Assembly (NCBI RefSeq): GCF_018977255.1
Contig: NW_024704742.1
Span: 1,242,001 to 1,306,000 of the forward strand
From: Callorhinchus milii
Taxonomy: Eukaryota
Direction: 5' to 3'
DNA: 64,000 nt
The first letter of the stretch is position 1. Every line of letters starts with the position of its first letter. Below are positions 4,493 through 35,560 of this stretch, piece after piece. Under the pieces are notes generated by a model that ran no database searches, had not been told where the DNA came from, and worked only from the letters and a program-made list of their open reading frames with translations. Made by a program: the position numbers and the translations under genes.

Positions 4493-4693
<201 letters not shown>

Positions 4694-4809
4694 TCATAAT
4701 AATAATAATCTTTGTACTTGATACAATCCCTTTGGGTTGTTTCTTCCGCTCCCACTGAAAAGCAATGACTCCACATTGGTGCAGCTGATGCTGTTTATAT
4801 ATTGAACAT

Positions 4810-5973: not shown

Positions 5974-6130
5974 CTAACGACATCAAGAGGAAAATGTTAG
6001 TCAGTGCGTTACGTTACTGCAGACCGACGAGAAGGTAGAAATGACTAGTTTTCTCCTCTTATAGAGATTGAGATGCACGTCATGAGAACGGTCTGGATGA
6101 AGAAGGCCCTTTCGGCCATGCAATCTCTTT

Positions 6131-6971: not shown

Positions 6972-7168
6972 ATGGATGCTGAGTGCAGGTTAGAAAGCCT
7001 CAAATCAAGGGTGCATTTGCCAGCCGCCTTCTCGTCCACGGGTGACACGAAGCCCTCTGCCTCATCGTCCAGCTGGTCCAGGAAGCTGCGAATGGTCAGG
7101 ACTGGCTTCACCGGGACCGTGAAGTCGGGCTTGGCGTTGCAGTCCTCCTCCGAGCCGTCCTCCTCCTC
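6972..7168 (-). CDS. FAM13A: FAM13A exon (EEEDGSEEDCNAKPDF...LSNLHSASM)
   Basis: 197 nt, ttcag|...|gtgagt, phase 0-2. Confidence 0.94.
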
Positions 7169-10100: not shown

Positions 10101-11488
10101 CAGCAGAGCAAAGCAGAGCGTGACACCAATGGCTAATTATCCCGGCAAAGCCACGGCCCGGTTTCCATTGCCAATCCCGACGGGCACCGGCGCCCAATCA
10201 GCCTTGCGGATCCCGACGCCAGAGAACGTGGGTGCCAGCCCAGTGGGTGGGGCAGCGTCGCTCCTGCCACTCTGGTCGACGTGCGAATAGAATGGATCTT
10301 TTCCCTCAAGGGAAACGGTTAAATTCACTCCGACCGGCACAAGCAAAATGTTATCCCCAAAGATCCTTTCGGGGGGCGGCGAGGGGGGGCGGGGGGGGGA
10401 GAAGGGGGAGGAGGAGGAGGGGAAAGAGGGGCTGGAGAAATGCTTTCAGATACTTCCAGCTTGGAATTGCACAACTTAAACAGCTGCCAGAGAGATCACA
10501 TCCATAACACGATGAATCACAGAACAGATGGACAGAGAGTAAAATGTACAATTAACTGCAGACTCACTGCACACTGGTCCCCTTTTGAATATCCGTGACT
10601 GGAGCCCGATTTAAGACGTCTTAAATTGGGGCCCAATCTGCTGTGAAAACACAAGTCTCAATCATGCGCTCAACAGTTTGGCCAGGCTTTCACGAAGGGA
10701 AAGTATTCTACGTTGGATTTCACTGTACATAACTTGTCAAAACTGATGTTCCCCTTACAATTAGATCTCTATAATCATACTAATATTAATAATTCTTGCT
10801 TTTAATACAGCGCCTTATCACCTCATTGAGACGTCTCAAAGCGCTTCACAGGATATACTGTTAAGTAAATTGACTTTATATTTTGTGGGCAAAATGCGGC
10901 AGCCGATTGCGCACAGCAATGTCCCAAAATCAGCCACGAAACAAATGACAAATTTCATTTGAGGGACTGGTGGCCACGTCGCCGAGATACTCACTGTACA
11001 GTATACACTTGTGAAGCGCTTTGAGACGCCTGGAGGACGTGATAAGGCGATATCTCAAAGGCAAGGATTATTATTGTTACTAGATTGTTCCCATTTAACC
11101 CCCGTTCATTTACTCCCCTCCCTGCTGAAGCCATTGGGACCCTCCACCCAATCCTCCCGAACCCCAAACCAACCCGAAGCCTCAACCCCCGACGGATGTT
11201 GTCGCTTTGAGTCCCCGCCCTCGTTTTTTTTTGCTGCTTAAAACGCACACAATACTTCTTCGCTTTGATTAACAGATCATTAAAGAAGCCGTTGCAAATC
11301 ACATCAGGTTAGAGCCTGCATTTGTAGCCATTAATGATTCTCAGCGTCACGGACAGGCACTACAGGTAAAATCATCAAACTGGTAACAATCAAGGAAACC
11401 AAGAGGATTGGAACGTCTGGAAAGATCAGCAATTAGTGAACGCCGGGGGGGGGGCGGGGGGCGGGGGGTGGGGGAGGGAGGTTTTCAC

Positions 11489-11572
11489 CTTTGGATCCTC
11501 GAAGAATGAAGCAGTTTCGCCCTCGATAATTGGCTGCAGCAAAGGGCTTCTTCGCTTGTTGGAAGGGGAACC
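11489..11572 (-). CDS. FAM13A: FAM13A exon ([28 protein letters not shown])
   Basis: 84 nt, cacag|...AAG|gtgaaa, phase 0-0. Contains an LxxIxE-type motif (LQPIIE) of the kind bound by PP2A-B56. Confidence 0.94.
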
Positions 11573-14515
11573 CTGTGATGGTGTTAACAAGCATGTTACA
11601 TTCCTTCGCCCCAGCACCCCGAAGGCCAAAACAGCAGCAAATACTCATTTCCTACAGCTCAGTCGGCTTGATCAGAGCACAATTCCCCCAACTTTGCTCA
11701 GTGCGTGCGTGCGTGCGCGCGCGCGCGCGGATGTGGGGAGAATGGGGAAGGAGGCAGGAAACACCAGGATAAAATGCGTGGAGCTTTTCTGGGTGGCCCA
11801 AGGCAGACTTTGAGAGGCCAGCAGACACTCCAGCGCTTGCTTCTCTGTTACTCCGCATTATTCTGTTAGGCCACTGTTACTTCATTACTTTGTGGTACGT
11901 CCGGACTGTAAATCAGAGTCAAATCCCAGCCTCCCAATCCCTCCCCTCCCTCCCCCAGTGTTGACAGGCTTCCATGTTCAATTCTATTTTTGATCTCCCC
12001 CGAGAGAATCCGAAGCTTTAGCAAACTCTTAAATAAAGAGTAGTTGAAATGTTCTCTCACGTAAGTCATGTTAGGCAACAGGTCAAGAACCCTCTCCTCC
12101 GCGCTCCCACCCCCTCCCCACCCAAAAAAAGCCTGGATAAAACTCCTAAATTTGGCACATGTCCTCCAACCCGTCTCTTGTCGACGACTGGAAACAGCGC
12201 TGTTAGCACTGAGGACTCGTTCAACCTCAGGTAAACAAAAAAAGAAACACACACCATTTCAAGAGCCTTCAGAGTTCAGTAGAGGATTCTTGCAAATATC
12301 GTACTGCCTAACGGAACGCAATCGAGTCAACATTCAAATACCTCAAACAGTGCAGTTTTTAAAAGGAAAAAGAAAAAGAAAAATTCGGTTAAGTCCGAGA
12401 TAGTCTCGTTGTTCACATTTACTCCTCGGGAGCTTTTGACAGAAGGCCCTGATGAAATCGGGGCTTGTGCTGAACAGTGCTATGGCTCACGTGGACGGAA
12501 ATGTTGCTTCAAACGAATATTGTGCTCGTCGAGATGCTGGATTCCCTATGATGGGCCCCTGTCAGATCACCAGTCTTTCAACTTGCCGTTTGCCATAAAC
12601 TGGCTTCTAGCCAACGTAGCAACTCGGGTTAAAATTAAATTGGGACGTTTTCAAAATGGACAGTAGCAGCGAGGGAGGGGACCGGGGGAAAGCTACCCTC
12701 TGCCCATGTTAAAAGTTAGAAAATATAGTGAAGCCTTAAATATAATGTGGCAGCGGGAGGAGGGTGGTGGGGGGGGTGGGGGGGGGTCAATAAAATTGTG
12801 ACCGGTGTTTTAAGGTGCTGACTGGTGAGGTCACTGGGCACGAAAGCAGAAAGTTGTTTTCCTGGGCAAAAAAGAAGACAAAAACGGCCGATTTCCGGGT
12901 CATCAGGTCACCACTGACAAAATTTTGTCTCTCTGACATGTGCAGTGAGGAGGAAATGGTGTCAGCCGATAACCTGAAGTCAGTCTTTTTTATATATAAT
13001 ATATATTTATATAGAAAAGTTTGCGGGAAGCTGGTTACAGGTCCGCAGGGGGACCTTCAATATAAGCCAATCCGCGTGTTAACAGAAACAAGAGTTTAAA
13101 ACAAAGGAACACGGAGAGAAAAAAAGCGAAGGGAAAACATAGGCATAACGTTTGATTAAATGTTCTCATTTGAAATAGTGTCTGAGAGTTAACACCAGGA
13201 GAACGAAGATCTCCCCATATTACATTACTTTTTTTTGTTTGTTTAAAATTGCAAGAGCTGAAAACTCCCTCCCTCCCTCCCTCATGGGGTTCACCGGCCA
13301 CTATGTTTAGGAGCTCATTCAGCGAAGATATTGGATGTCTGATGTGGGAAACGGGAGAACAAGAGTTTCCGCTTGGAGAGCAGAGTGCGGTGGTTACCCT
13401 CTGGGTTTAACCTTTGCTATTCCTGATGTGCTTTTGCTGACGCTGACATTGCATGCCTCGAATGAGAAATAACCTTGGGGAACAAGAGCTCCGTTTCCAA
13501 CCCACCCCCCCACCCGCCCCCCCCGCCCTTACTTTGCTGTTTCATCCCATCTCGATGAGCACAACAATTCACGGATAATATCGAAACGAAAATAAAGAAG
13601 TTCCTGTTGGCGAAGGCAAGGTAAAGCTCCGCAATTCACCCTGGAGGCAAATCAACGGCACTTTTACTACCTCATCCCGAGCAGTCAACGGCGATCTGCT
13701 TGTGTACCGTTCACCCACTAAAGTTTAGACAATCGCAGTTAATCGGATAGAAAACCAGCCCAACAGGTAGGGACCTCGTGTGCAAGCTGAAATTTTTTTT
13801 TGGGGGGGGGGTTCTGCCCAGAACGCCGGCAAAGACAGTCACGTGTCTCTTCGTGGTAAATTGAAATGGATGCGATTGTCTGGAACAGAGATCTGTAGCC
13901 AACGGAAGTAAGTGGAATGTCGCCTCGTCTCCTGGAACTCTCAGAGCAACGATTTCTCAAGGAGTGACTATCGCAAAGGCCGCTCAGTTCTCCTGTCAGA
14001 GAGCCGCACACATTTCACCCCCCACTCCCCCCCCCCACCACCGACCACGGTTACACACGAACGACCGGACGAGCAAACGTCACACTTGCAGCCTGTGCAG
14101 CTTCGCGTGATCTTGCGAGCGCTACGTTTGCGTAGATTAACATTGAACAGAGGGGCGGCAGGGCTCGGAATCTAGCAATCGCAAACGAAAACGCCGGCAA
14201 TGGAAATGCGATAAAACGCCCCGCGCTACTTTGGGACTCGACGTTCAGGGGACACACACCCGTTTCTGCTCCGGGACAGCCTCGTTACGCACAGTGACGC
14301 GAAAAAGAATAATTGAGAAACTAAGATGCCCAAACCGGCAAGATTTCCCCGGTCACCGTGCTTTCTGAACATTAACCAGTGTGCGGACCTTAGTTACTTC
14401 ACAGGAGAACCTCCAGGGCTCGTGGTCTTGGCATTTCCAGCTTGGCTTTGAACACAATCTCTCACGCCGTCTCTACCAGTAACGAGCTACATTACATACA
14501 GCAACGGGTACTTAC

Positions 14516-14611
14516 AATGACGGGGATGGTGGTTGCCCTGGACAGGATCTGCTTCACCAGTCGGTAACGGTCGTAGAGAGGCTTCATCACCAACCTCTCG
14601 CTCTTTGTGAC
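14516..14611 (-). CDS. FAM13A: FAM13A exon ([32 protein letters not shown])
   Basis: 96 nt, cacag|...|gtaagt, phase 0-0. Confidence 0.95.
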
Positions 14612-15027
14612 CTGTGGACGCACAGAGAGGTTTCTCACCAGGCTTCCTGCACCCCTTGCATTGATCCATTTTCCCCACCAGGACCAGACAGGCATTTGAA
14701 TAAGGCTCCATGTTCATTCGAACCTCGGCTAATATACCTCCCTCACCTCGTTCAAGGTCCGCCTCAAGGCCTACCTCTTCGATCGCGCTTTTGGTCATCC
14801 GTCTCCTCATTAACCCTCCCCCCAACTAACCCCCTCCAACCGGCTCCCACCCACCCCCAGCTCGGGTGCCAAGCCATTTTCGTTAAGCGCCCCCCCACCA
14901 TGTAATGGGCACGTTCTAAAGATAAATTTGCAAGCAATTTAAGCCTCGAGACCAATCATTCGTAAACGAGTCCCGAAGGGTGGCACAGCTCGAACCCCAC
15001 AGCTCGCAGACCGACGGCCACACTTAC

Positions 15028-15111
15028 CGGGCGCCCGTGGATGCTTTCGTAATATAGAAGACCTTTCTGAAGAGCCACTTTTTCCTCGGATATCTGGTCT
15101 CGGGTCATGTC
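15028..15111 (-). CDS. FAM13A: FAM13A exon (DMTRDQISEEKVALQKGLLYYESIHGRP)
   Basis: 84 nt, aacag|...|gtaagt, phase 0-0. Confidence 0.95.
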
Positions 15112-15854
15112 CTGTTCAGAGGGGGACACAAAAAGGATAAAAGCACCAATGAATTGAGAGCAACAGTGAAAGCAGTTGGGAGACGCCCCCCCCCCCACCC
15201 CACCCCGCCAGAAGGGCAGCGAGACAGTCCACGCAAGGAGCAGCTTTTATTAGATCCTCGATAAAGTGAGCGCGTGAGAAAAATACCTCGGAGATTACTA
15301 CGGCGCAGGCCTGCGCTAACACGCCTGTCCAGATCCGATGTCCGCCCCCCCCCCCCCCACAAACCAAAGCCAGTACAAAATGGCCAATTTCCAGGGCAAT
15401 AAGCACCGCTCGTAAGGTCAGAGGTCGTCCTCAACGAAGTTAAGTTCACAAAAGCCGGCAAAACAGCCCTGACCGGTCCCCCGGAAGCTGCTTTCGTTGA
15501 CGGTGAAATACACCACTTCTCACTATGACCACAGATATATGGTCAATTCACTTTACAGTCTATTCTGTGAAGCGCTTTGAGACGTCTCAAAGACGTGAAA
15601 AGCGCTATATCAAATGCAAGGATTATTACTATTAATATTATGGCTGTTCTCTAGAAACTGCACGCCATTGTTTCCCCCCCACCCCCACCCCCCCCTCACT
15701 TCCAGCCCCTCTTTCCCATCTCCATCACTTTCCCTTTGCCTCATCCCCATCCATCCAATCCCTCGAGAGCGAGAACTGGAGTGGCGGATTCACTGAGCTG
15801 TTGGAAGGTTGGTAAGGTGCGCTGGTGGACTACGTCTCCACGGGCCAAGGTTAC

Positions 15855-16081
15855 CTTGATGTCCTCGGAGCGCTGCATTTCGACACGCTTTTCCTGCAGT
15901 TTCTTCAGGATACTCTCCAGCGTGGTGTCCACAGTGGGTTTCTGCGCTCTCTCGGCAACGTCCGGCTTCTTCTCCTGCTCGGGCCCCTTTTCCAGCTGCG
16001 ACCCGAAGCTCTTCGGGAGAGTGTTGCTGCGTTGCCGAACCTGAGGAGCCAAGTCCTCCTCCGACACGTTCAACTTCACAT
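15855..16081 (-). CDS. FAM13A: FAM13A exon (DVKLNVSEEDLAPQVRQRSNTLPKSFGSQLEK...RSEDIK)
   Basis: 227 nt, gccag|...AAG|gtaacc, phase 1-0. Contains an RxRxxT basophilic kinase-type motif (RQRSNT). Confidence 0.94.
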
Positions 16082-16322
16082 CTGGCACGTTAAAAAACAG
16101 AGTCGGGCGGTGAAATGCGCTCTCGCCTGGCAGCGAGGAGCTTGCAGCACCTTTGGCAACTTTTTTTTTTGTTGTGAAAAACATGCAATGCTTATTTTAC
16201 ACAACGTGGCACAGAAGAGACCTCAAGAAAAATTGCCAGACGTATGACTCAAGCTTCTGAAGTATCAAGGTAAAAAAACACGACACGACACTCGCTCAAT
16301 GTGCTCTACGTAGAATCCTTCA

Positions 16323-16550
<228 letters not shown>

Positions 16551-17964
16551 TTAAATAAATGGGGAGGAGGGGTACAGTCAACCGAAAATTTTGGAGGAAG
16601 AAGAGATCCAAGCTGTGCACGAGACAGATAAGGAATCTAACAAAGGGTTGGATGAACTGGCCGTCAGCAAATCTCGACCAAGATGGTGAAAATGAAAACT
16701 TTTGCGAAGTAGTTGGACAGTTAGCAGAGAGCATAATAGCCGAAGCAAGAGTAATGCCTTTTAAAACAAACAACCCCAAAAATTGGGTTTGCAAAGGAGT
16801 CGTATGCTTTGAAAGCAGCTATGGGACGGGGCGTTCACAAAGTCCTGTTAACCCATTTCTTTTTCTTCCGCGTTGATTTTTTTTATTTTCTGCTGCAGAC
16901 GTGCGGAGCGTAACGACGTCCGACACCAGTAACTTCCTCGTCACTGCATCAAAATGCAGACTTGCCTGGACTCGCGCGAACGTTCGGGGAGGAGAAGGGA
17001 GTGGGGGGGAAACACAGGTGCCTCCTGGCAGCCCCATGAGCTACTTCCGACCACTACACTACTGCTTTAAGCCTATTGTAAGAGATTGGACAAAGGCTTC
17101 CTTGATGGATTCAGGCACAAGCAGTTTGCACTGGTGCGTGTGCGTGTGTGTGTGTGGTTTCCCCCCCCCACCACCACCACACGGACTCTTATATAAAAAT
17201 GGTTCCCAGGCCCCGCTGGCTCCTCCCCCGGGCCAGAGTTTTCCCGCGTGGCTGCCCTCGCTCTAGGGCTCCGACTCGTGGGGAAGGGGAGCTCGCGTCG
17301 CAGCAAGCCTCGTACCTCGTGCACCGTACTGCTCGAACGACAGCACGACGCAACAGGACAACCGACGGCACCGACGGGCCGGACGGGACAGAGCCAACAG
17401 CGCCCAAGAGTGGAGGGCATCATGCCGTCGGCGCTCCTCATTCACGGCTCTCGTCTTGCGTTCGCGACGCGAAAGCCTCGAGGGGAACTCTAGCGACGAG
17501 GGGGAAGGGTTTCAAACGGCTTCGGCCGCTGCGCCCAACCAGGGCCAACGTGGGAGGTTTTCAGCCTCGGGAATCGGGCTGCCAGGGCGACGGGTTGAAA
17601 CGATTTGCCGCTGAACGAGAGCTCCGACAGGTCCTCGCCGCACGAAAGGGGCCGTACACACGTAAATCGTACTGTTGTGCAATCACGTGGGAAGTCGGAC
17701 TGGTGGATGCCTTTGCCCTGCCACGGTTTCTAGAGACTCTCCCCGGCGATCAGGCAATTAAAAGTCTGGGGTAATTAATTTGACAATTAAAAGGCAAAGT
17801 TCTTGTTCGCACCCCGGATGCTGAAGGGTCTCCAATAACATTAGCAGCCTCCGCTTTCCAGGTCTATTCTGGAGCTTGTTCCTTTTCGGCTATTGAATAA
17901 GCGCATAATTATGGAGATGACCTTCTGTCTACCTCCAAATCACGGGCTTGTTAAACAGCAAGCT

Positions 17965-18240
17965 TGGCACTTCCATTTAAAGTGCCCCCGTCGCTCCTTT
18001 CCAATCCAAGCGACATCAAAATATCTACAGCGCCTCTCGTGTGCCGAGGCGCTAGACAGTCAGGGATTTGGACCCGAGCTGCGGGTTGGGATCAGGAGGG
18101 CTGGAGGTCAAGAGTAGGAGGTTGACCGAAGGTGCGGTCGAAGAGAAGGGTCTCGAGGCGGGCCTCGAAGGAGGTGAGGGATGGAACGAGGCAAAGGGAC
18201 TGCGGGATGGACTTTCAAAGGGTGGGGGCAGAAACACTAT
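17965..18240 (-). mobile_element. L2 LINE 3' fragment
   Basis: Reverse complement of the L2 ORF2 end and 3'UTR (cccgcctcgagacccttctcttcgacc...cccgcagctcgggtccaaatccctgactgtc). Confidence 0.75.
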
Positions 18241-18328
18241 AGACGTTGGCCCTTCACTTAGATTCTAGCAAAAAACAATTGAGCTCCATAATTTATAAAC
18301 TGGGGTTGAAGTCCTCTCCTCTCACCCA

Positions 18329-19005
18329 GAGTCCTGTACATCAGTGGTGAGAGCACTCGCCTCACGAGAGCGAGGACCTGGGCTCAATTCCCAGCAGGAC
18401 AAGTTTCCTTACTCCCCAAGCCTCTGCTTCCCTAGCAGTAAATAGAGTCCTGGAGTCCTGTAGCTCAGTGGTTAGAGCACTCGCTTTGCAAGTGAGAGAC
18501 CTGAGTTCAATTCCAGGCAGAGGGCGAAACCTTGGGCAAGTTTCCTTACTCCACACAGAGCCTAATAATAATCCCTCCAAAACCAAAAACAATAATAAAT
18601 TGGTCATTTTCAATCTACGACTGTTTGTGGGACATTGCTGTGCGCAATTGGCTGCCGCGTTCGCCCACAAATATACAGTCAATTCACTTTACAGTATATT
18701 CTGTGAAGCGCTTTGGGACGTCCTCCCGACGTGAAAAGCGCTATATCAAATGCAAGGATTAAATAGGAACCTGGTTGTTAATTGATTGGCGGATCACTTT
18801 TCCAAATAAATTTTTTTTTAATCGCTCAATCCACGGCTGTGTGTGCGGACGCTGCTGTGCACAATTGGCTGCCGCGTTTCACCCACAAAATACACAGTCA
18901 ATTCACTTTACGGCATATTCCGTGAAGCGCTTTGAGACGTCTCGAAGACGTGATAAGGCGCTGCATCAAATGCCAGGTTGATTATTGTTATTATTATTGT
19001 TATTA
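18329..19005 (+). mobile_element. Older long-form SINE (18329-18445, 18761-19005) interrupted by a young short-form SINE (18452-18760)
   Basis: TSD TAAATAG at 18439-18445 and 18760-18766; the host halves rejoin to the long-form consensus. Confidence 0.88.
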
Positions 19006-19098
19006 TCAATCCTAACAGTTTACAAATGTCTGGTTCTGTAAATGAATCCTCAAACTCCCGTGTGAACAAGTTACCCCCCGACACTGAAAGCGACTCAC

Positions 19099-19237
19099 GC
19101 GGTATCTCCGCTCCTCTTCAAATTTCTCCTCAAATTTCCTGATCTTCTTCTTCAAGTTCTGGATTCTCTTGCTCATCTGCGCTGGGGTCAAATCTTCCCT
19201 GTCATCGTCATACGAGCCCAAGGATGAGCTCCGGCGC
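19099..19237 (-). CDS. FAM13A: FAM13A exon (RRSSSLGSYDDDREDLTPAQMSKRIQNLKKKIRKFEEKFEEERRYR)
   Basis: 139 nt, cccag|...|gtgagt, phase 2-0. Confidence 0.96.
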
Positions 19238-19466
19238 CTGGGGACAGCACACAAAAAAGCATCAGGTTAACTGCAACAGTCTCTTTCCACTAACGACAAC
19301 TTGCACTTACGCAAACTCCAAGTACTTTTTTTACAACAAATAGTTTTTTTCTTTGTTGGCAGAGACTGCAACCGTTTTATAGACCCTCAAGTTCGACACT
19401 AAAGCCATGAAGTGAATGGCCAGTTTGAGGGACATGTGGCTGGGACATATGAGTTTTGAATAGCGT

Positions 19467-19780
19467 TAATAATAAGAATAATCCTTGCAATTGGATATAG
19501 CTCCTTATATCACGTCCTCGAGACGTCTCAGAGCGCTTCACAGAATATACTGTAAAGTGAACTGACGGTGCATTTTGTGGGCGGAAGGGATCTTTAACAT
19601 CCACCCTGAACGGGAAGACGGCTTAAGATCTCAAACCAAAGCGAGGTACCTCTGATGACCCAGTGCTCCACCAGTAACCGTACTGTTGCGTTAGCCTGGA
19701 TCACGAGCTGAAGTCCCAATGGGGATAGGTATTAACCCAGAATCTTTGACCCTGAGTGGAGAGAGTCGTACCAAGAGGCA
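19467..19780 (-). mobile_element. Deu-type SINE, internally deleted
   Basis: Tail at 19467-19585 joined to old-type head/body (gggatctttaacatccacc...). Confidence 0.7.
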
Positions 19781-20870
19781 AAACAGCAGCAAAGCGTTTC
19801 AGAACAAAAAAAAAAATAAGTGTCCGACACAAACATAGTACAGATCGCATTATGTCAACCGTTCCAGAATCTTGTGCACTCGCTCTCTAAGTATGCATTG
19901 AAAAGTTCTGAGTTACCCTAATCAACAGCGATGTTAAATCAGTAATGGATTGCGAAATATCTTTTGATGGTTCGCGTTAGCAATCTGATTTTGATGTTTA
20001 GACCTGATCCTGTTTCGGGAGTTCTGTGCAACAGAGCGTAACACGACTGCCTGAGCAACAAGTAAAAAGCATTCCATTCCGCAATGCCCTCCAAGTGACC
20101 AAGCGTGAACGCCTTTTGCTTTGTTTGGGGGTGGGCGGCGGGGGAGGGCAAGAAATGGGAGGAAACAATACACCGCTCGGCTGATGTCCTGAGTGAAATG
20201 AAATAGTTCCCGACAACTGATAGCAATCCTCGCGTTCGATACAGCACTTCATCACGACCGAGGGAATCGCTGCCATTTGCAGTCACCACGTACATGCTTG
20301 TAGGCAGCCAAATTAAGAGGCTCGTGTCAAAAGGACAAAATGATCGAAAGACTATCATCAGCCTGAAATGAAGGAACCAGCCTCCAGCTATATATATATA
20401 TATATATATATACAGATACGTTCAGTTTGAAGTCTGAGGCTGCGCTGCTGGAAACCGTTCGATGTGGAGCTAAAGGAACACAGTCAAAGAAATACAGCCA
20501 ATCCTCGTTTGCTAATGCCAGATTTACAGATTCATCAAAGAATTGGGCCCGGGTTGTTGCAGGTTCAGTTACACGGTCCACTGCACCCGGTCATTCCTGG
20601 GGGCCCGGTGATTGCTTTACTGTTCAACCTCGCATCCGAGGTTCTCCGAGCGAGCAGAGACACAACTATGGGCCAGGCTTCGATATCTCTCTCTCTCTCT
20701 CTCTCTCTCACACTCTCACACACACACACACACACACAATCTTGGTCTCCTGCAACCCATTTAAAAACATTTTCTTTAAAAAAAAACATATGAATTTCAC
20801 AGCGCCTCGGACTGAGAGCTCCCCGGGGCTTCAGAACAAATTAAAAGGCGACGGTTTCCCGGCCACTCAC

Positions 20871-21084
20871 CTCATGAACGAATGCGAGTTGGGTGGGGAA
20901 GGAGGCACCTCCGTATCGTTCTGGAACTGCTGGCTCTGGCCGTAGGCGTAGAAGCGGGGGGACACCATGGGGTGGGTGTCTTCCTCCAGCAGGTGGCGGA
21001 TCAGCCGGCCGGCTTGGGGCGAGAGCCGAGCTTCCTCGGACTCGGCTTCCGGGCGCTGCCACGAGGAAAAGGCCGGGACAGGTT
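20871..21084 (-). CDS. FAM13A: FAM13A exon (EPVPAFSSWQRPEAESEEARLSPQAGRLIRHLLEEDTHPMVSPRFYAYGQSQQFQNDTEVPPSPPNSHSFMR)
   Basis: 214 nt, atttcag|...AG|gtgagt, phase 1-2; close to recalled FAM13A. Confidence 0.95.
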
Positions 21085-21312
21085 CTGAAATGGGATCGGA
21101 CGCTTTTCGTCAGCATTAAACGCCTTCGGTCACCTCTCACAAACCACAGCCAAAATTCCTTTCGTTTTTTTTTGTGAAAAAAAAATCAAGTGACTATTTA
21201 TGCTGCGGGGCGTTGCCGCCGAAAAGTGGGGGGGGGGGGGGGGTGGGGATAAGATCTTCCTTTTCTCCCCAGAGTTTCAAAGAATGGTTTGGGGGTGGGG
21301 TGGGGCACTTAC

Positions 21313-21378
21313 CCTCAAGAGCGTTTTGCTGAAGCAGAGATTTGAAATCAATGTAGGGGAAAGTGAAGGGAGGCGACA
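21313..21378 (-). CDS. FAM13A: Putative 66-nt cassette exon (VSPPFTFPYIDFKSLLQQNALE)
   Basis: Long pyrimidine tract + ttag acceptor, GAGG|gtaagt donor, symmetric phase 1-1, no stop. Resembles the recalled FAM13B segment ASCPITFPLIDFKTMHLQRDGE at the same position. Confidence 0.8.
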
Positions 21379-22374
21379 CTAATAAGAGCAAAAGGAAAAG
21401 AATAAAAGAAAAATCAGAGTGAGCAGACAGACAGACAGACAGACAGACACAGACAGACAGAGATGCTGTAGACGAGACAGGAAGAAAATAAGTCCAATCA
21501 ACTCCTGCATAGCAGGAAGATAGCAGCAGGTCACATCTATATCCAATTACAAGCCACGACCGTGCATTTAATCTCCCCTCCTTCATCACAGAACAAGCTC
21601 AGTTTCCAAAGCTATAAAGCCTTCCTGGTGAGGTTACATTATCCGCTGACACCCAGTCATTTTCTCTAATCAAAACATGAATTCTTTTCGAAAAACTATA
21701 TACTTTTTTGGGGTGGGGGGGGGGAGGGTGAACGCAGGTATATAGATGGATGAAGTAGCCCCATGAAAACTCAACAGCCGGGTCTGAGCCGGGTACAGGT
21801 TTCTTCATCGATCCCTTTTAAACAAAATTCTGGTCATCGTAATCTGGTACCCATCATGACTCGATAGAAAGGAAGGGAAATAAAAATGGCTGTAAAGTCT
21901 ATTAGCATATTTACAAAGAATGTACAGCACAGAAACAGGCCACTCGCCCCAACTCGTCCTCCTCGCCAGTGTTTATATTCCACAAGAGTCTCCACTCATT
22001 CCTTACTCCCTCTTCGAGATGTCTTGACGACATAAGGTGCTATTTCAAATGCGAGGATTTCTACTCCCATTGGTGGAATGGTGTTCTGCCATTTTTTTTA
22101 AACAAAATATATCCCACAATGTACGGTACACACAACAAAAAAAAACAAAGTGGTCGGGGGAAACCTAGGAGAGAGGAACAAAAATCTGATGCTGGTGGGG
22201 AAAAAAAAGGCTACAACTATCCTTAAAAGGGCAAATAACAACGAGCTTGAAAATAAGAAGGAATTTTAAATAAGGTAAACATGAGGGCCTGAGCCAGACA
22301 GAATGAGAAGGATTGATGCTTGGTCCGTGCCGGTTTAGCGGATGTCACTCAGCACAATATTTAGTAACAAACAA

Positions 22375-22760
22375 TATTCCTTGCATTTGATAATAGCAAC
22401 TGATCACATTGTTGAGACATCTGAAAAAGCTTCACAGGATATACTGTGTGTATTTTGTGGATCAACGCGGCAGCCAATTTCTGCATAGCAATGTCCCACA
22501 AATAGCCATGGACTGAATGACCAATTCTTTATTCGAGGGACTGTTGGCCAGGACATTGGAAAAAAAAACCTTCTCTTTTTGAAAACCCTTTAACAGGCAG
22601 ACGGGACGTTGGTATAACGTCTCATGTGAAGGACCGCAGCTCAAGACAATGCAGCACATCCGAGCGCTGCAATGGAGTATCAGCATTGACAACGTGACTT
22701 CCAAGAACCGAAGAGGGGCTTGAACCCACTACGTTTTGACTCAGGGTGCTGCCAACTCAC
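22375..22760 (-). mobile_element. Old near-full-length Deu-type SINE
   Basis: Old-type head (gagtcaaaacgtagtgggttcaagcccc), gtcctggccaacagtccc, Deu core and tail. Confidence 0.75.
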
Positions 22761-24114
22761 ACCATCCTTCTCTGCTGTGATAGCTTCTGACACAACTACA
22801 TATGGCTATGGTCGGGCTGCGATGAGGAGAAGAAAAATCGGCCAAGGTTCCTGATCGCTGAGAGGTGGTCATTAGGTGACGATGGGAATGAAGTTAGCTG
22901 GACAGTCAGTCTAATAGCTTTCCGCGACTCAATCAGGAGAATTGCACACTTGGGTGAGGCACAGAAGAGGAACCACAGCCCAGTTTAAATAAAATGAAAA
23001 ACAAAAAAAGGAGTTGGAAGAGGAGCGAATTGGCCAAGGACATAAAAACGTTATTTAAAATCCCAAAATCACAGGAGAATAAGTGGACCAAATCACAACG
23101 CTTCCCAAAAAGGGAAAAAAAAAAACCAAAACGTTGTAATCTCCTCCTTCTCCCGCTTGGGGAGGGATGGAAATGAGGAGAAAACATTTTCTTGCTCCCT
23201 CTTCTGGGATTCCAAAAGTCACATCCTGCCCGAGAGGTCAAGGCAACAGTCTATTCCCACATTAAGGTTGTGTACCAGCCATAAGGTGGGTCCTGCATTC
23301 TCCCCACTTTCACTCCTTATTTAGGATCTGCCTGGCGCCAGCCAGCAGCTCTTAGATCTGCTTCTCATGCTTAGGGGCGAGAACATTGGGAGAGTGCTTT
23401 GCAATGCGCACCATCCTCCTCCACCGTGAAAGCTTCCAAGCATCAGCTTGTTACCTCCCTCCGTCCATTTGAGAAAAACGGCAAGTTCTTACAATAGATG
23501 TTCTACAGATGCTTCAACAACGACGACTTGCGTTCACATGCAAGATTCCATGGCACCATGCGAAAGGAGTTTCTCCCGGTGTCCTGGCCAACAGTCTCCC
23601 CCAAGTAAATTTGTCGTTCTTTTTCGTGGCGACACAGGGTAGCGCTCTGGGAGAGCATAAGAGGGTATGCAGAGCGGGCTCTCTTCCCAATCCTTCTTGG
23701 TCTACCCGGGGGAAAGGCTGAGGCTGATCCGCTACCCTGGTTTCGGTCCATTCCCCCCACTTTGCCAGCCTCCCGACAAAAAGCAAGCTGCAATCAGAAG
23801 CTCATACCTGCAGCACAATGTGCAAATACCTTTAATCGTAAGGAATGTTATCACAAGGTGCACAGATGCTATGTACACCCCCCACCGCCTTCGCTCCCCC
23901 ACCCCATTGGCCCTGTTAGAAGACACCAATTCACAGAGTACGTTTTGAACGTGAGACATTTCGTGTTTTAGAGACTGACAATATTAAGACTGAAAACAGC
24001 AGCAAAAAAAAAAAATCAATTGTGAACAATATTCTGTATGTTGAAATGTGCAAAGCAGGAACGTGCGGTAAAAAACAGTCTGAACGAATGGCAAATAGTC
24101 GAAACTTTTTTTTT

Positions 24115-24487
24115 TAAATCCTTGCATTTGACGCAGCACTTTTCTACTTCGGGAGGACATCTCAAAGCGCTTCACAGGGGCTGTACTTTATGGGCAAATC
24201 TGGCAGCCTAATTGCGCACAGCAGCGACTCACAAACAGCCACGAAACCGACGACCACTTTTATTTGGGGGGATTGTTGGCCAGGACACTGGGAGAAACTG
24301 CCTCTCCTTTCAAATAGGGCCATGAGATCTTTAACATCCAGCTGATCGGGCATCACACCCCAAGCACTGCGTTGGAGTGTCAGGTTTAGACGATGCAATT
24401 CCAAGTCCCGACTTGGGGTTTCAACCTGCAATCTTCTGTCTCTCTCCCCGGAGGCGAGAGTGATGCCACTGAGCCAGGCTGACCCAT
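24115..24487 (-). mobile_element. Old near-full-length Deu-type SINE
   Basis: Head ggctcagtggcatcactctcgcctc, body, Deu core and tail. Confidence 0.75.
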
Positions 24488-24599
24488 ACAAACAGCATTC
24501 TCGTGCCTTTCCACTTGCCTCCCTCCGCGAGGCCAACAGGGCGGGCGCACAGCCAAACCCGTTCCTACAGTTTTGCCAGTTTTGCTGAGAGCTTGATTT

Positions 24600-24935
24600 G
24601 GAGAACCTCACACTCGCGTACAAAATCACTTCATGCCAGTGGCAACCCCTACCTCTCCGATCTGCCACACCTCACTCCCTTACCCTCTGCCTGGGCTCAG
24701 CTGGCTCAGGCCCCCTGCACGTCCCTCGTCTCGCCCCTATCCGCTCCACCATTGGTGGCTGTGCTTTCAGGCACTGAGCCCCAGAACTTTGGAACTCCCC
24801 GCCTCAATTCCTGTGTCTTGCCCGTCTTCAGATCATACCTGAAGATCTTCCACCTCTCCCTCCTTGGCTCGGGGCCACTGTTAGCCGCTCCCAAGACACT
24901 GCCCCGGTGCGAAGGGCACAATATAAACGCACTAC
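24600..24935 (+). mobile_element. L2 LINE 3' fragment
   Basis: YKSLH..ATPYLSDL-like and FRSYLKIF remnants, then the tail. Confidence 0.65.
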
Positions 24936-25948
24936 AAAACGAGAGCCCCGGCTCTCCCTGTGGGGAGTGCGCAGTGGACGGCTGAGCTACCCGGTGATTG
25001 AAAATCGTATCGTTTTTGCAGTGACATTCTCTTTCCCCTCCCCCCGCGCAGAATAGAGATAATACATTAAAAATCCTTGCGTGTGAAGTAGCGCCTTATC
25101 CCCCTCGCTGAGACGTCTCAAAGCGCTTCGCAGGATACACTGTAAAGCGGACTGACTGCGCGTCTTGCGGGCGAGATTAATGCTCGCAGGGGAAAAAAAA
25201 CACAAAGCAGTTTTTGAACGTAAGTTACTTGAGCCCAGCAGTGGGGGTGGGGGGGGGGGTGGGGTGAAATACATACAGCAGCTCATCAAGTCACTACTTA
25301 TTTAAAGGCCCTCACAAAATGACAGGTTGGTTCCAAGCCTCGGTGACGCTCATTCAGGATTTCAGATATCCCATCGAATGATTAAAACACGACAAGTACA
25401 AATACAAGCAGCGGCTGAAATCAAAAGCCATAATGCGAGCCACGCAGCACTCCGAAAGCCAGCGGTTGAAGCAGAAATATTGTTAATCAAAAGCATCTGA
25501 TCTAACAGGAGGTGGGGTGGGGGGGGAGGTGGACTTGGGAGACTAATCCACATGAAAATGATACACCCAGGCACCAACCTTTACTAACGCAAACGGTCTT
25601 AAAAAAAAATTCGGCTAAACATTTGCGATCAGCGCTCCCACCTTTTACAGTTTTAAAGATCTCTCCCTTTAGCGAAACCCCCCCACCCCAAAAAAAATCA
25701 CACGACTCCCCCCCAAAAAAGCCGAGAGCGCTACCATTCGCGCAGCCCCGAAACCTCGCAAGCGCCCGGAAACAACGCAGAAACCCTCGCTCACGACGCC
25801 CCCACTTGAAGCAATTCCGAGAAGCAGTTCTTCCCCCGGAGACGGGGCAATCAAAGCGACAGCGCCCCAAAACCGCCGCGCGGGGAGCGCGTTCCGCGCC
25901 GCCCCCACCCCCTCCATGCACTCCAACAGACTGAAAAAACTTTATTAC

Positions 25949-26099
25949 CTCCCCAGTCGTTGTGCTCCGACAAGCCGGTCAGGTCCAGCCGAGGGACGTC
26001 CCCCGCCGTGCTCCCCTCCGGGGGGGCCGGGTCCCCGCTTCTCCCCGCTTTGGCTGCGTCGTTTTGACTCTGGGATTCTTGGATCTTCATAGCCGAGTT
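25949..26099 (-). CDS. FAM13A: FAM13A exon (NSAMKIQESQ...DVPRLDLTGLSEHNDWG)
   Basis: 151 nt, cgcag|...G|gtaata, phase 0-1. MKIQE and VPxxDLT match FAM13A. Confidence 0.9.
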
Positions 26100-29000
26100 C
26101 TGCGCCGAGGAAAGGGGGGGGTGTGGGGGGGAAAAAGGCAATGAATAATTCCGGAGCTCAACCGGCAAGAAGGGAAGGAGAGAGAGGAAAGAAAGAGAGA
26201 GTCGAATTTTTTTATGATTTTTTTTTATAAAAAAAAGCGGAACTCCTTCGCTGCTCAAGTTTATTTTTTTATATACAAAAAAACAAGTTTTTTCAATGCG
26301 TTTCCCACAATTGACTGTGCGCCCTGACCCTCCTCCACTGTAGTCAAGCAACGGTCCCCGTGACATCTGAAAACAACCCATCTGCTTAGCTTGGACTCCC
26401 GCTAGCCAGCCTTTCCTACTCCCCCCCTCCTCCTCCTCCTTCTCCTCCCTCCCTCGCACCCCCCTCTTGTTTATATCTAGTCGTGCGTGTAATGAAAAGC
26501 CACTGTGCTCCTTGGAGTAGCCTCTCCTATTGGGCGGGACCTCGAGCTAAACCAACAAATCCATGCTGTTGTGCAGCATCTGCAGTGAGATACACCCTGA
26601 GGTCATTCTCTCTCTCTCTCTCTCCCTCTCTCGTTTGCAAGAACAGATTTTCTTTTGAGGGGGAGAGAGAGAGAGAGAGAGAGAGAAAAAAACCCACCCA
26701 CGGGAGGCCGCAAATATGGATCGCGGACGTGGCTGCACTCGTGCAAGCGCACATACGCGCAGATGGAATGATGAGCGACTGCAACGCTGGCTGCACAGGC
26801 GGCGATTCCCTGCGCTTCCCGTGCAGCCGGATGGGAACACTGAAAGGCTGGCTGGGCGTTGGGAGTCTATTAATAGTGCAGGCAGCAGGCACCACTCAAA
26901 AAGCCCCCTTCGCGACTTGCGAGCACCTCTAACAAAGAATGGTCTGGGATCGAGGGCCGCGTGTGCTGGCAAGCAGCCAAAATGCAACGAGCCAGAAAAG
27001 TCTGCTGTCACTGAACAGCCGTGTTCAGCTGCTGACCGATTAATCGTTTCTCTTTAAAGACCTCTGCAGCTCTTTAATTTTTTATATATACATCTGTGTG
27101 TATATATATATATATATATCCACAAGGGTTAAAAGCCCATTTTAAATTTCAGCAGCAAGTTTTGGCTTAGACTGCTGCCCTATTATGCTGAGCGGAACAA
27201 TGCTCCTTGCGAAATAGTTGGCGAGATCTTTATAAATTCCCTTTCCTCGCTTTTAAGAAGCACCTCACAGCCCACGTCGCTCCATCTTGCACAAGCGACA
27301 ATAAAATGAGTAGCTTCTTTGGCAACAAACTGGACCACGTTCAGCACAGCTTTAATTGCAGCAAAATGACTGAATGAGGTGTGAAAAAAAAATAAAGTAC
27401 TGAACGCCACAGTGTGGAAAGTCATTAATAATTTGTTGACCCACTTAAAGATATCAACTCACAAGGCATGCCAAGTCAGGTGACGGTTTGTTGGGAGAGT
27501 CTGATCAGGGATCTTAATTCCTCCATGAAATTAAACGGAAATTAATTCCCCGATTTAACACACTAAAGAAGAACATTACGATTTTTGAGGAATGCAGACT
27601 GAACTGTAGATAACTTCCATAAACACTGGTGGATTGTACATCATTTATAATAAGAGCTCCCTTAACAACACCATGATTACTGTCAGCTGTAAAACAAACG
27701 AGATGAAGACGTAGGCAAGCAATTTGCAACAAGGATTCACCCAAACACGTTACTGCTTCATATAACATCTTATTTTCTGTTCCGATATTTAGGTTCCAAG
27801 GGAGTGGTTAATAACCTGCTCCTTGCAGGAATGCACCTTAACTTGACCTTGTAACACCGGCAAGAACAGAAACGCAGACTCCATGGTATGTGGTAAAGAT
27901 CTGTATTCTATGAAGTGCTTTGAGACGTCTTGGAAGACGTGATAAGGCGCTATATAAAATGCCAGGATTATTATCATTATTATCTATAGCAGGATTCATT
28001 GCAGGGTGACACCATAGAGTTGGGGGTCGCAACACAAAATGGCAATATACACCTGGGTTTCATCTCATAATAATCCTTCCATTTGATATAGCATCTCAAA
28101 AGGGCTTCAAAAAAATGAATACAATAATAATCATCCTTGCATTTGATGCATCGCCTTATCACATCTCCGAGACGTCTCAAAGCGCTTCACAGAATATACT
28201 GCAAAGCGAACTGACTGTATATTTTGTGGGCAAAATATTATATCGTAAAGCTAGGATTAAAAGAAGAGAGCAAATAAGGTTATCTCATAGGTTTTCCGCC
28301 CTCCAATCTGCAGAAGTGACGATACTTTTTCAGAAGTCTAACTGCAGCAGCAGCCTGGAACTGCACCGTTGGCGCAGACACCTCCCAAACGCTCGACTTC
28401 CGAGCAGCCCCGATCCATCTGGTCACTAGGGAAACACTGCGCTAGCCATTAACAGGTGCTTTGTGATCCGCCTGTGGTTCAGTGAGAAGAGCAAGCCCAC
28501 TGCAAGCAAAATTAACCACGTGGCTAGACTGGTGTTACTGAGGCAAGTGCATGTATCCCTGGGGGTGGCTTTTGTGCTTTGGATCCTCGTTTCAGGACTC
28601 AAGGACTGGTCATAACTAATCCACGCCAACATCCCCAGATTGTTTATCCTTTGAAACGCTTTCCCAGACCACAGTTATTTACATCAACGAGTGCCCATGC
28701 GATCGCAGATTCCTGGTTGAATCCAGACAATGTTAGGAGAGAGAGAGAAAAAAAAAAATCGATGTGACCAAAGTGGTAAGCGCCAGAGACCTCCTGTCTG
28801 GTGATTTTTGCGGAGTCCAAGTCTTTAGATTAGTGGTGACGCACGTGGATCTCCTGATGGAAACAGTTTACATCGGGAGGCACTTTGCGCCAGTGGCCGA
28901 GGGCCAGTAATGCTACTATTTTCCACCGAGAGTGATATTTTTAACAACTCTGGCTTTCAGTTCCAATGAACCAGCTTCAAGTCAAATCTCTTAATCCATT

Positions 29001-30322
29001 CTTTCCAGTTGTATGTTAAACCTATTTGCTGCAATGGTTTTCTGCAATGGTTTTCCCTGGTAACTTATTCCAAACATCTATTAATTTCCTTACCCTTAAA
29101 CTTCATCCCTGGAGTTTGGACCCTTTTGCTGCAGTAAACAACCTGGTCGCATCAACACTGACGGTATTTTGTGGGCGAAACGCGACAGCCAATTGCGCAC
29201 AGCAGTGTCCCCACAAACAGTCGCGGATTGAAATGACCAATTTACTATTATTATTGTTGTGTGTTTTTTTTTTAAAAGAAATTATTACCTCCGGAAAAGC
29301 GTACTGCTAACAAAGCAATCGTGATTACCTCTGGAAATATTCAATCCATTCTCAGTTGCTGCTCTCTGTTCCCCCCTCAACCAATTTCAATTCTCGTGAT
29401 TTAATGTTCTGGCCTTTCCACAGCTTTGTCCTGATTTGTAACAGACTTCCTTTCTTCCTGTCCAGAAAGTTTAAGATAACCTATATTTATCTTCTTTCCT
29501 TTCATTGAACTCCATACACCGTCTCCGCGCTCCAGGCTTTTATCGTTTCTTATGCAGTCCCCATTCAAACTGGTTTGTTATATCTGTGTCTTCCATAGGC
29601 TTTGGTATTTTAATCCCTCAGTCAACACCCTTGATATACCAGATCTCTGATACTCCAATCACACAGAACATTTTCTTCAGTCTAGTGTTTCCAATTTCAC
29701 TAGCTTCTTTCTCGTATTTTACTAAAAAAGTTCTTTACATTTCCTTTTCCTCTCTATTTGTGTCCACAAAATAGTCAATTCACTTTATAGTATACGACGT
29801 GAAGCGCTTTGAGGCGTCTCGAAGACGTGATAAGGCGCTGCATCAAAATGCAAGGATTATTCTTATTATCTGGAGGCACATTTCTGTGGAGCCCACGTAC
29901 TTGTTCTCCCTAGCCTACCCCACAAATACTTTCTAGGTATCTAGAAAACTCTTTTCAACAGGCACCATCCAGCCAGCCATTCATTCATCAACTCTCACAG
30001 CTTATCTCCACTTTTTGAACCAACCGGTTCCCCATTTTCAGTCTTTTTTTTGCTCCAAAGATCAAGGAAAGGAGAGGAATGTTGTGCTTCGTGTGAAGAA
30101 TTCTCGATATATAGCATAACATTTCTCGCCTTTCCATCACTCCAGTTTTCTCTCTTAATCCTCTAAACGTATCTCTTTAATATCCTTCTCTCCTCTCAGT
30201 GTTATTCACTTCTGGTCCCTCTACGTTGGCTCATTGAGCCTCCGCGCTATTTTCAAAATGATCAAAATTTTTATCATTAGCCTGATCTCGTGATGCCGTA
30301 CATAGAAGATCTTATTACTCAC

Positions 30323-30383
30323 CAGAGTCAATTTTACAGGATTGTAAGTGTCCTTTTCACAGAGCATAGTGGCGCTTTCCTTC
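30323..30383 (-). CDS. FAM13A: FAM13A exon (KESATMLCEKDTYNPVKLTL)
   Basis: 61 nt, tgtttcag|...CTG|gtgagt. Phase 2-0 is exactly what the flanking exons require; the peptide itself is poorly conserved. Confidence 0.75.
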
Positions 30384-30977
30384 CTGAAACACAGACCAGA
30401 GCAAATTAAATTCGAGTCAATCAGATTTACGGTTCACTGGCACAGTCAACACTGGCCTTCCCACGACAAAGCTTGTACAACAGATATCTAAACGAGATTC
30501 TTGGAACTTCTTTCAAAATAAAGTATAATCTAAATAAAGTAGAATGGCAGAGAGGAACTGAAGCCCATCAGTTCCCTAAAGGGACGCTACAATTTCCTAA
30601 AATTCAGGGAATCCTCACAATGTGCTTGGCTGGGTCCAAAGCCACGATTACAAGGGAGGCACACACACACACACACAAAAAAAAAAAACCCAGCAGAGTT
30701 CTGGTCATGTCGCCGCTGAGGTCACTGGCTGAAAAGGGAGGTGCGTAACTCGCACGTTCGGAGGGAGTGACGTCAGAGGCCAGCCGATGATCCGCACATC
30801 GGCCTTTCTTGTGCAGGAAGCTGGCCAGTCAGGACTGGAACCCAGGGGCTACCACGTTCTCGATTAGCGCGGGTCAACCCAGATCCTCGCTAAGTGAGGC
30901 AGCGCTCAATTTAAAAAAAAAAAAGGTATCAGAAGGCGGTCACTCCTCACAACAACACACATAAAAATTTAAAACAG

Positions 30978-31320
30978 ATTACTTTTGTACAGCGCCTTCC
31001 ACGTCGGGAGGACGTCCCAAGGCCCTGGATAGTCAGGCACCCGCACCCGAGCTGGACGTTTGGGATCATGAGGGGTGGAGGGCAAGGAGGGTAGGGGGTG
31101 GGTGGGGGGACCGAAGGCGCTGTGGAAGAAGAGGGTCTTGTTGAGACGGGTCTTGAGGGAGATGGCGAGGCGGAGGGACTACGGGATGGAGTTCTGGAAG
31201 GTGGCGGCAAAGAGGCTGAAGGTCTTGCCCTCCAATGTCGGGGCAGGTAAGGCGGGGGACATCAAGCAGGACCGGAGCCTGCTGAGCGGAGAGAGCGGGC
31301 AGGTTTGGTAGGGGCTTAGG
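30978..31320 (-). mobile_element. L2 LINE 3' fragment with intact tail
   Basis: L2 ORF2 end; the 3' end TTGGGACGTCCTCCCGACGTG is identical to the young SINE tail. Confidence 0.82.
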
Positions 31321-34300: not shown

Positions 34301-35029
34301 TCGACGACGAAGCAAAATTTTTTCCAATGATGAGGGCTGAGGACACGTGGCAAATCCCCTGACAGCATAGCGGTAGGAGATAACACCGAGCGGGGAAATG
34401 GCGTACAAAAGCAAGGGTCTTCCCCACTGACAGGACAGTCCCATCGCTGGCAAGAGTAGTTCGGAAAGTGGCAAACGCACCTGCTCTCAACCAATGGGTG
34501 TGGTGTCCCAGCAATACACAGGCGAGGCAAAATGCCCTCTGTACGATGTGCTGCCTTTAATGGTGGCATTGAAGGGTGTGGCTATTGACAGCGGTTCCCC
34601 AACTTGAACGAGAAACTGAATTCAAACTGCACGTCTTTCTGTGGGTCGGCCAAGAGTCTTGACACACGCAGAAACCCATCACCAGGCTCCAGAGTATCCC
34701 AAACAAGACAGTGCCGTGCATCCCAACGACACGTGAAAATTGCCCCCCCCCACCGTCTAGAATTACATAATTCCTGAGACTATTAGGGTGCTGGTTGACA
34801 AGAGCAAGAGCTTGTGGGACGCCAAGGTCTGTTGGAAGCCCGAACAGCTAAAACTGCACGGCTTGCTGCCAAGAGCGCCTGCCTGGAGAGCTTCGCATTT
34901 TGCTTGTCCAGCTCGGACCATCCGACTAGTTAGGACTTTGTGACTTCCAGGGCTTAACGGGAGCCGAATGGAAAGAATGCCTGAACCCCCAAACATCACA
35001 CAAACATTGGATGGTGGAGAAAAACTGAC

Positions 35030-35142
35030 CTGTCCTGTTCACTGACGTCGTCAGGCTGAACCAGAAAGGTCAGGTCACCGCCTGGAGCTCCAGCAAATGG
35101 ATCCTGAGACCACGACGTAGCAAAGCTGCTATTTTCCATTAC
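35030..35142 (-). CDS. FAM13A: FAM13A exon (VMENSSFATSWSQDPFAGAPGGDLTFLVQPDDVSEQDR)
   Basis: 113 nt, tttctggcag|...AG|gtcagt, phase 0-2. Weak similarity to recalled VNMES...PDD...DER. Confidence 0.8.
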
Positions 35143-35174
35143 CTGCCAGAAACAAAAAACACCACCAGTTAACA

Positions 35175-35560
35175 CAACAACAACAAATTACACTTGTATA
35201 GCGTCTTTCACGTTGGATGTCCCAAGCCACTGGACAGTCAGGGGTTTGGACCCGAGCTGGGGATTAGGTTCAGGAGGGGTGGAGGGCGGAGAGGGTAGGG
35301 GTAGGAGGGTGACCGAAGGCGTGGCTTCAAGGAGGCAAGGGAGGGAGCGAGGCACAGGGACTGCGGGATGAAATTCCAAAGGGCGGTGGCAAGAAGAGAG
35401 GCTGAAGGCCCGGCCGCCGATGGTGGTGGGGCGGGCTGGGCAGGGGACATGGGAGCAGGCCGGAGCCCGCTGGGCGGAGGGAGTGCTCAGGTCGGTATGG
35501 AGTTAGCAGGTCGCAGAGGTAAGGAGGAGGAAAGCTGTGGAGGGCTTTGAAGGCGAGGAC
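35175..35560 (-). mobile_element. L2 LINE 3' fragment
   Basis: FKALHS..SLPLRPANS...LWNFIPQSL..A.SLASLKPRL, ending in an (AAC)n tail on +. Confidence 0.78.

Follow-up and report, generated by a model that had tools for sequence, protein, structure and literature searches.

A conserved, usually skipped 66-nucleotide cassette exon of FAM13A in the elephant shark and its candidate origin by tandem duplication of a short motif

The DNA of Callorhinchus milii analysed here (the window, 64,000 nucleotides) contains the 3' part of FAM13A on the minus strand. Residues 1–352 of XP_042192378.1, which include the RhoGAP domain, gave no match in the window, and the 15 kb on the 5' side of that matched part (48756–64000) gave no match for the first exon of the short isoform of birds and sawshark; the 5' part of FAM13A is outside the window. 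Within the matched part lies a 66-nt segment that is almost certainly a real C. milii FAM13A cassette exon. The features of the locus are as follows.

4496..48756, minus strand: 3' part of FAM13A, 17 matched coding stretches (residues 352–1063 of XP_042192378.1)
25949..26099, minus strand: upstream exon, 151 nt, joined to 21084 in the contigs from three of four runs
25997–25950, minus strand: motif copy 1, the final 16 codons of the upstream exon, starting VPRLDL
21379..25948, minus strand: intron 5' of the cassette, 4570 nt
21379..21465, minus strand: 3' splice region, with AG at 21380–21379 and an AG-free zone of 85 nt
21424..21461, minus strand: (TCTG)x10 microsatellite within the AG-free zone
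21313..21378, minus strand: 66-nt cassette exon, phase 1-1, adding 22 residues (from splice signals, frame and homologous peptides)
21361–21314, minus strand: motif copy 2, codons within the cassette, starting FPYIDFK
21307..21312, minus strand: 5' splice site GTAAGT, after an exonic G
21085..21312, minus strand: intron from the cassette to the next exon, 228 nt
20871..21084, minus strand: downstream exon, 214 nt, encoding EPVPAF... and several Ser-Pro sites; identity to C. milii FAM13A is 100%

A pyrimidine tract with ttattag at its end precedes the cassette, and G|gtaagt follows it. The upstream exon stops after the first base of a codon, and the frame is open, without stops, whether the cassette is included or skipped; direct translation of the codon-frame stretch 21379–21314 on the minus strand gives VSPPFTFPYIDFKSLLQQNALE. 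A preliminary description of this DNA had reported a segment with a pyrimidine tract, an AG, a G|GTAAGT donor and phase 1-1 between an exon ending in DWG and the EPVPAF exon. Both the signals and the placement hold, on the minus strand at 21378–21313 with flanking exons at 26099–25949 and 21084–20871. Among 18 acceptors measured in the gene, some of which were placed from tblastn edges, that of the cassette has the highest pyrimidine content (82% over 60 nt) and the second longest AG-free zone. With a strict filter (YAG preceded by 40 nt of which at least 80% are pyrimidines, and a G|GTRAGT donor within 250 nt), the cassette was the sole candidate between 48756 and 4616. The TCTG repeat is UG-rich and is a possible splicing-regulator site, and a long AG-free, UG-rich acceptor region would fit a regulated, often repressed exon. 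Two other in-frame acceptors, at 21504 and 21465, were considered with the same donor and set aside; they would encode microsatellite or pyrimidine-tract sequence with no fish counterpart.

Homologous peptides point to the same segment. The gar 22-mer found the cassette as its best tblastn match in the window (E 9.9e-5; runner-up, E 0.056), and of seven homologous peptides compared with the 127,870 ungapped six-frame 22-mers, six ranked the cassette at the top, each time in exact register; the exception was the lamprey 22-mer. A tree of 17 proteins, built solely from residues downstream of the junction and without the cassette, placed the C. milii gene next to Heptranchias FAM13A (97/95), within a clade of FAM13A proteins (86/94). 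Forced grouping with three FAM13B rows was rejected (p-AU 0.022), and a quick tree of 52 rows was concordant (support 97). The assignment to FAM13A made in the preliminary description is thus borne out by both the placement and the rejected grouping, and, given that the gene groups with FAM13A and not with FAM13B, the phylogenetic objection foreseen there does not apply. For these reasons we assign a negligible probability to a chance pseudo-exon or a misnamed FAM13B gene: the missing annotation in C. milii is what a pseudo-exon would predict, but a best match for 6 of 7 homologous peptides speaks against chance, and the cassette-free tree against misnaming.

An insert of 22 residues at the same junction is present in FAM13A entries of gar (6 of 10), bowfin (3 of 5), Colossoma (4 of 7) and Pygocentrus (1 of 2). 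It was first met in a gar protein among 50%-cluster representatives, as 22 extra residues at the junction, and RefSeq isoform pairs differ by exactly this length (in gar, XP_015200131.2 with the insert and XP_015200132.2 without). The insert was found in none of five sturgeon and none of four coelacanth FAM13A entries, and no tetrapod FAM13A model in the sample carries the cassette, in agreement with the proposal that mammalian FAM13A lost the exon or has it unannotated. A homologue search with a 40-residue read-through query of the exon returned two candidates, none with E<=10, and a two-row profile search returned 15 candidates with three matches; the list of species with the exon is a lower bound.

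The C. milii 22-mer is identical, in register, to those of gar at 13, bowfin at 12 and Colossoma at 11 of 22 positions. Compared with gar, identity in the cassette (59%) is higher than in the 50 residues upstream (21/50, 42%) and lower than in the downstream residues (52/71). The gar, bowfin and characin exons thus share gene, junction, length and register with that of C. milii; they are annotated as alternative, whereas the C. milii exon is unannotated and its inclusion is very probable. The exon is therefore not new for FAM13A, being already present in RefSeq isoforms of several fishes, and is new only for the C. milii annotation. As an optional exon of FAM13A, it dates to the jawed-vertebrate ancestor. 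Intact splice signals together with identity across the split between cartilaginous and bony fishes suggest that the cassette is under selection, and a cassette still under selection would still be used in some tissue or stage.

None of the 6 C. milii and none of the 20 shark or ray FAM13A models that we examined contains the cassette. These models belong to a set of 170 proteins (including 4 from coelacanth, the remainder being mostly from primates, birds and squamates), in none of which was a motif insert found; given that all were retrieved by likeness to the downstream exon, the set is not a fair sample. The junction could be scored in 163 of the 170, and any insert was present only in two chinchilla models, with 18 residues at the same junction that lack the motif and were not counted as the cassette. 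Three UniRef models of C. milii FAM13A show apparent translated intron around exons 26099–25949 and 21084, which is likely the result of annotation errors.

The RNA check covered assembled contigs of 4 of 13 listed runs, the RNA nature of which was assumed. Contigs of three runs, all from one study, joined 25949 directly to 21084 with intron-type ends (depths of 704.6, 124.6 and 67), and the fourth run showed no joint. The two inclusion joints that the preliminary description had proposed to look for, 25949 to 21378 and 21313 to 21084, were not among the 15 joints listed of 47, which derive from contigs that drop rare forms. Contig cover of the bin 21276–21469 was 0.08, 17.9, 0 and 0 in the four runs, values that are not evidence of absence. 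Skipping was dominant in the sampled runs. A relic that was silenced recently and has dropped out of the spliced mRNA would yield the same picture, with only the skipped joint in 3 of 4 runs and no trace in the 6 C. milii and 20 shark or ray models. We consider such a relic improbable, given the open frame, the consensus donor, the most pyrimidine-rich acceptor of 18 and the 59% identity to gar, and given that contigs lose rare variants and that the tissues of the runs are not stated. Inclusion of the cassette very probably does occur in C. milii.

The 22-mer is not confined to FAM13A. It is present in 2 of 2 Heptranchias FAM13B proteins, 9 of 9 Heterodontus FAM13C proteins, 1 of 2 lungfish isoforms of the FAM13C clade (XP_043945932.1 with the segment, XP_043945933.1 without), 4 of 4 lamprey entries and one hagfish protein, and was absent from one bird FAM13B isoform and seven proteins of the FAM13B clade. 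The segments of FAM13B (Heptranchias XP_067852371.1) and FAM13C (Heterodontus and lungfish) share with FAM13A the junction, the length and a P-x-I-D-F-K core; they retain an ancestral H..D-G/D tail, whereas the FAM13A version has QQ..E. Cassette length is 22 residues in every lineage, and every jawed-vertebrate cassette seen retains P-x-[IL]-D-F-K, so that the conserved core is this pattern instead of the TFPxIDFK originally proposed. Identity of the C. milii 22-mer is 8/22 with shark FAM13B, 7/22 with shark FAM13C, 10/22 with lungfish FAM13C, 4/22 with lamprey and 3/22 with hagfish.

The homology to a 22-residue segment at the same junction of FAM13B, which the preliminary description had drawn from a peptide given for human FAM13B, is seen with shark FAM13B, the peptide of which resembles the quoted version. 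The label "FAM13B-type" that accompanied this comparison does not fit, given that the C. milii peptide shares fewer residues with shark FAM13B (8 of 22) than with the FAM13A exons of gar, bowfin and characins (13, 12 and 11), and it is also too narrow, given the presence of the 22-mer in FAM13C and in cyclostomes. An origin before the FAM13A/B split stands, and the exon is older still: its occurrence in FAM13B, FAM13C, lamprey and hagfish indicates that it predates the three jawed-vertebrate paralogues. It probably also predates the split from cyclostomes, the lamprey and hagfish 22-mers being assumed from length and position to be separate exons. The observation at the core of the preliminary description is thus confirmed, and its interpretation is supported in part. 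Lungfish proteins that carry the name "FAM13A-like" group with FAM13C in the trees, and one of these has a RhoGAP domain. We take mammalian FAM13C to be devoid of this domain; lungfish FAM13C, at least, keeps it.

The end of the upstream exon holds a related copy of the motif, which the preliminary description had overlooked. Both copies comprise 16 residues with the pattern hydrophobic-P-x-hydrophobic-D-hydrophobic, lie at the same distance from a phase-1 junction and are set 22 residues apart in vertebrates. Amphioxus and 25 other distant FAM13 proteins have one motif each, typically [IV]PPLD[LF]xxLHxHxDG, which in most of the 26 directly precedes an EP[IV]P-like stretch, and no second copy was found within 30 residues upstream of it in these proteins. 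We built a 16-column profile from these 26 single-copy proteins, the taxon being identified for amphioxus only; they were chosen by a pattern taken from the vertebrate copies, and scores for the core are therefore partly circular. In shark FAM13B (872 residues), the two copies ranked first and second on the profile (16.7 and 8.8 bits; p<0.005 and 0.005, respectively, with 200 shuffles). In C. milii FAM13A with the exon placed in silico, copy 1 ranked first (14.3 bits) and the cassette second (1.3 bits, p=0.085), and in gar FAM13A the cassette was outside the top three. The 10 tail columns, which were not used in picking the 26 proteins, scored +14.1 for copy 2 of shark FAM13B and +6.4 for that of shark FAM13C; the tail columns favour copy 2 of FAM13B and FAM13C, and the core favours copy 1. 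By homology to one ancestral segment, phase and register, the signal of duplication is clear in shark FAM13B and weak in the C. milii cassette.

Convergence would offer a different account, in which a real and ancient exon is unrelated to the end of the upstream exon and only one of the two copies derives from the invertebrate motif. Direct identity between copies 1 and 2 is only 2–6 of 22 residues (24 of 66 bases at the DNA level), FAM13A-type cassettes score poorly on the single-copy profile, and an HMM of the same motifs gave no significant match in the six frames of the window (best E 0.85), all of which convergence would explain. It sits poorly, however, with the finding that the copies in shark FAM13B are the two best windows of 872 residues and exactly 22 apart, as well as with the similarity of amphioxus to both copies in the same register (9/22 with C. 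milii copy 1, and 7–8/22 with copy 2 of FAM13B and FAM13C). We therefore regard convergence as unlikely, and tandem duplication of the final 16 residues of the upstream exon as the probable origin of the cassette.

In its simplest form, this duplication would have occurred once, in the vertebrate stem. The ancestral animal FAM13 would have had one motif (hydrophobic-P-x-L-D-L/F, followed by L-H-x-H-x-D-G) directly before the EP[IV]P exon, and the cassette would have been inherited vertically from the vertebrate FAM13 ancestor. FAM13C would later have lost copy 1, FAM13A would have altered the tail of copy 2, and copy 2 was probably lost from tetrapod FAM13A. Alternative exons born by tandem exon duplication form a general class, in which, as here, two neighbouring and related coding segments share a phase and one is alternative. 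FAM13 differs in that the two segments do not exclude each other: copy 1 forms the 3' end of a longer, retained exon, so isoforms contain either one copy or both. Given that the upstream copy of FAM13C has decayed, skipping of the cassette there removes the motif entirely. Among cyclostome-clade paralogues, some models have copy 1 only and others copy 2 only, a pattern that suggests reciprocal loss; absence of the cassette from a single model may also reflect a skipped isoform.

A structure model of gar isoform X1 obtained with AlphaFold2 had pLDDT values of <50 for residues 470–703, a stretch that spans both copies and lies apart from the RhoGAP and COOH-terminal helical parts. Coverage of the protein in PDB and Pfam is restricted to the RhoGAP domain. 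With the region being disordered, what the exon changes is most likely not a fold but how many short docking motifs are present, or of which type, and we think it reasonably likely that a conserved island in such disorder is a binding motif of some kind. The motif directly precedes several Ser-Pro sites, and an RRRSSS stretch is located about 90 residues further downstream. Skipping of the cassette would leave copy 1 adjoining the Ser-Pro-rich region, and inclusion would put copy 2 beside this region and push copy 1 back. The available text of a study of mouse Fam13a (PMC4357514) maps a 14-3-3 site at residues 315–329, two nuclear localization signals and a B56 region at 460–609; in comparison with these data all such sites lie downstream of the motif, and from its position we equate the RRRSSS stretch with the mouse 14-3-3 site. 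A candidate partner would be a proline-directed kinase or a phosphatase that acts on the Ser-Pro sites and the downstream 14-3-3 site. That the partner is a kinase or phosphatase at all is a tentative suggestion, doubtful rather than probable.

A selected exon might instead act as a spacer or local modifier and not as a second docking site, either by separating copy 1 from the Ser-Pro cluster or by contributing an aromatic-rich patch. The constant length of 22 residues and the loss from the FAM13A version of the H-x-x-x-D-G tail kept in FAM13B and FAM13C would suit such a role. Retention of P-x-[IL]-D-F-K in all jawed-vertebrate cassettes seen does not, and a pure spacer does not explain lungfish and shark FAM13C, where decay of copy 1 has left the cassette as the sole motif; we hold the spacer to be quite unlikely. 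We thus favour, with a probability of roughly 0.7, a functional, usually skipped and inherited cassette that carries a candidate second docking motif derived by tandem duplication.

Known docking motifs were compared with the FAM13 copies. The MAPK D-motif, the calcineurin PxIxIT motif and the Cdc14 PxL motif likewise have spaced hydrophobic residues after a proline, and likewise occur in disorder upstream of Ser-Pro sites. Basic residues characteristic of the MAPK D-motif, one to five positions before hydrophobic-P-x-hydrophobic-x-hydrophobic, were missing from all 8 cassette copies and all 6 jawed-vertebrate copies 1, and were present in 19 of 26 distant proteins and in 2 of 2 cyclostome-clade copies 1. 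A PxIxIT-like pattern (P-x-hydrophobic-x-hydrophobic-polar, with no proline inside), which is loose and was scored without a background control, was matched by 8 of 8 cassette copies, 6 of 8 copies 1 and 5 of 26 distant proteins. A CtBP-type PxDLS, seen in 10 of the 26 distant proteins and in none of 16 vertebrate copies, was set aside. The Cdc14 PxL pattern (hydrophobic-P-x-L), as given in the accessible part of PMC8728146, fails on jawed-vertebrate cassettes, and in the passages available from PMC7458460 the PxLxL forms are spellings of PxIxIT. None of the MAPK D-motif, PxIxIT and PxL classes fits all copies of the motif, and none explains the invariant D/N and the histidine tail of the FAM13 motif. 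Complex prediction for gar residues 598–668 with the RhoGAP and COOH-terminal helical parts of the same protein, performed without alignments, gave a score of 0.00, which counts neither for nor against binding, and a feature search of the ESM Atlas with the amphioxus motif region gave no usable match.

FAM13A contains other exons that vary between models. A 28-residue exon at 11572–11489 on the minus strand includes LLQPIIE and so has the LxxIxE pattern, which we take to be the docking motif for PP2A-B56. This exon is present or absent between FAM13A models in C. milii, white shark, coelacanth, gar, bowfin, macaque and gecko, and gar and bowfin show all four of its combinations with the 22-residue exon. 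It is a second, very old motif-switching exon, and its toggling in seven lineages indicates that motif switching by splicing is a habit of FAM13A. A 42-nt exon at 43008–42967 on the minus strand, with an AG-free zone of 80 nt, is probably another conserved cassette, its 14 residues being missing from some shark isoforms and present in others. Two splicing events described for FAM13B, a 192-nt event in the accessible text of PMC4835787 and an RBM10-sensitive event in that of PMC5520337, concern different exons; the primers for the latter event appear, from the part of the paper available, to lie in the COOH-terminal part of FAM13B.

A literature search found no account of the exon, the motif or the duplication; splicing databases and most subscription journals, which may catalogue the human FAM13B exon, were outside its scope. 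It likewise found no work linking FAM13A to a MAPK docking motif or FAM13 to calcineurin PxIxIT, and none of relevance on CDC14A. At the least, the results correct the gene model of elephant shark FAM13A. The type of event, a conserved cassette exon arising from a local duplication, is ordinary. The motif is the more useful point: kept across animals, located in disorder, duplicated and toggled by splicing, it is a good candidate for an interaction that the paired isoforms make directly testable. A broader reading, to which we give not quite an even chance, is that an undescribed FAM13 docking motif extends from amphioxus and more distant animals to mammals, was duplicated in the vertebrate stem and has its dose set by splicing and reciprocal loss, such that fish FAM13A, like FAM13B, carries one copy or two, lungfish FAM13C one or none, and tetrapod FAM13A copy 1 only. 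FAM13B has been linked to atrial fibrillation and FAM13A to fat distribution in the available text of PMC10714175 and PMC6456441, respectively. If the broader reading is true, the 66-nt exon would be a natural switch that exposes a partner of FAM13A, FAM13B and FAM13C, genes associated with lung, fat and heart traits.

In all four runs the summed contig depth was very high over short stretches of the window, at approximately 23400–25200 and at 39905–40444 on the plus strand, which resemble dispersed repeats. The 180-residue frame at 39905–40444 resembles a LINE fragment, and a repeat whose translation ends in the same tail recurs at several sites in the window.
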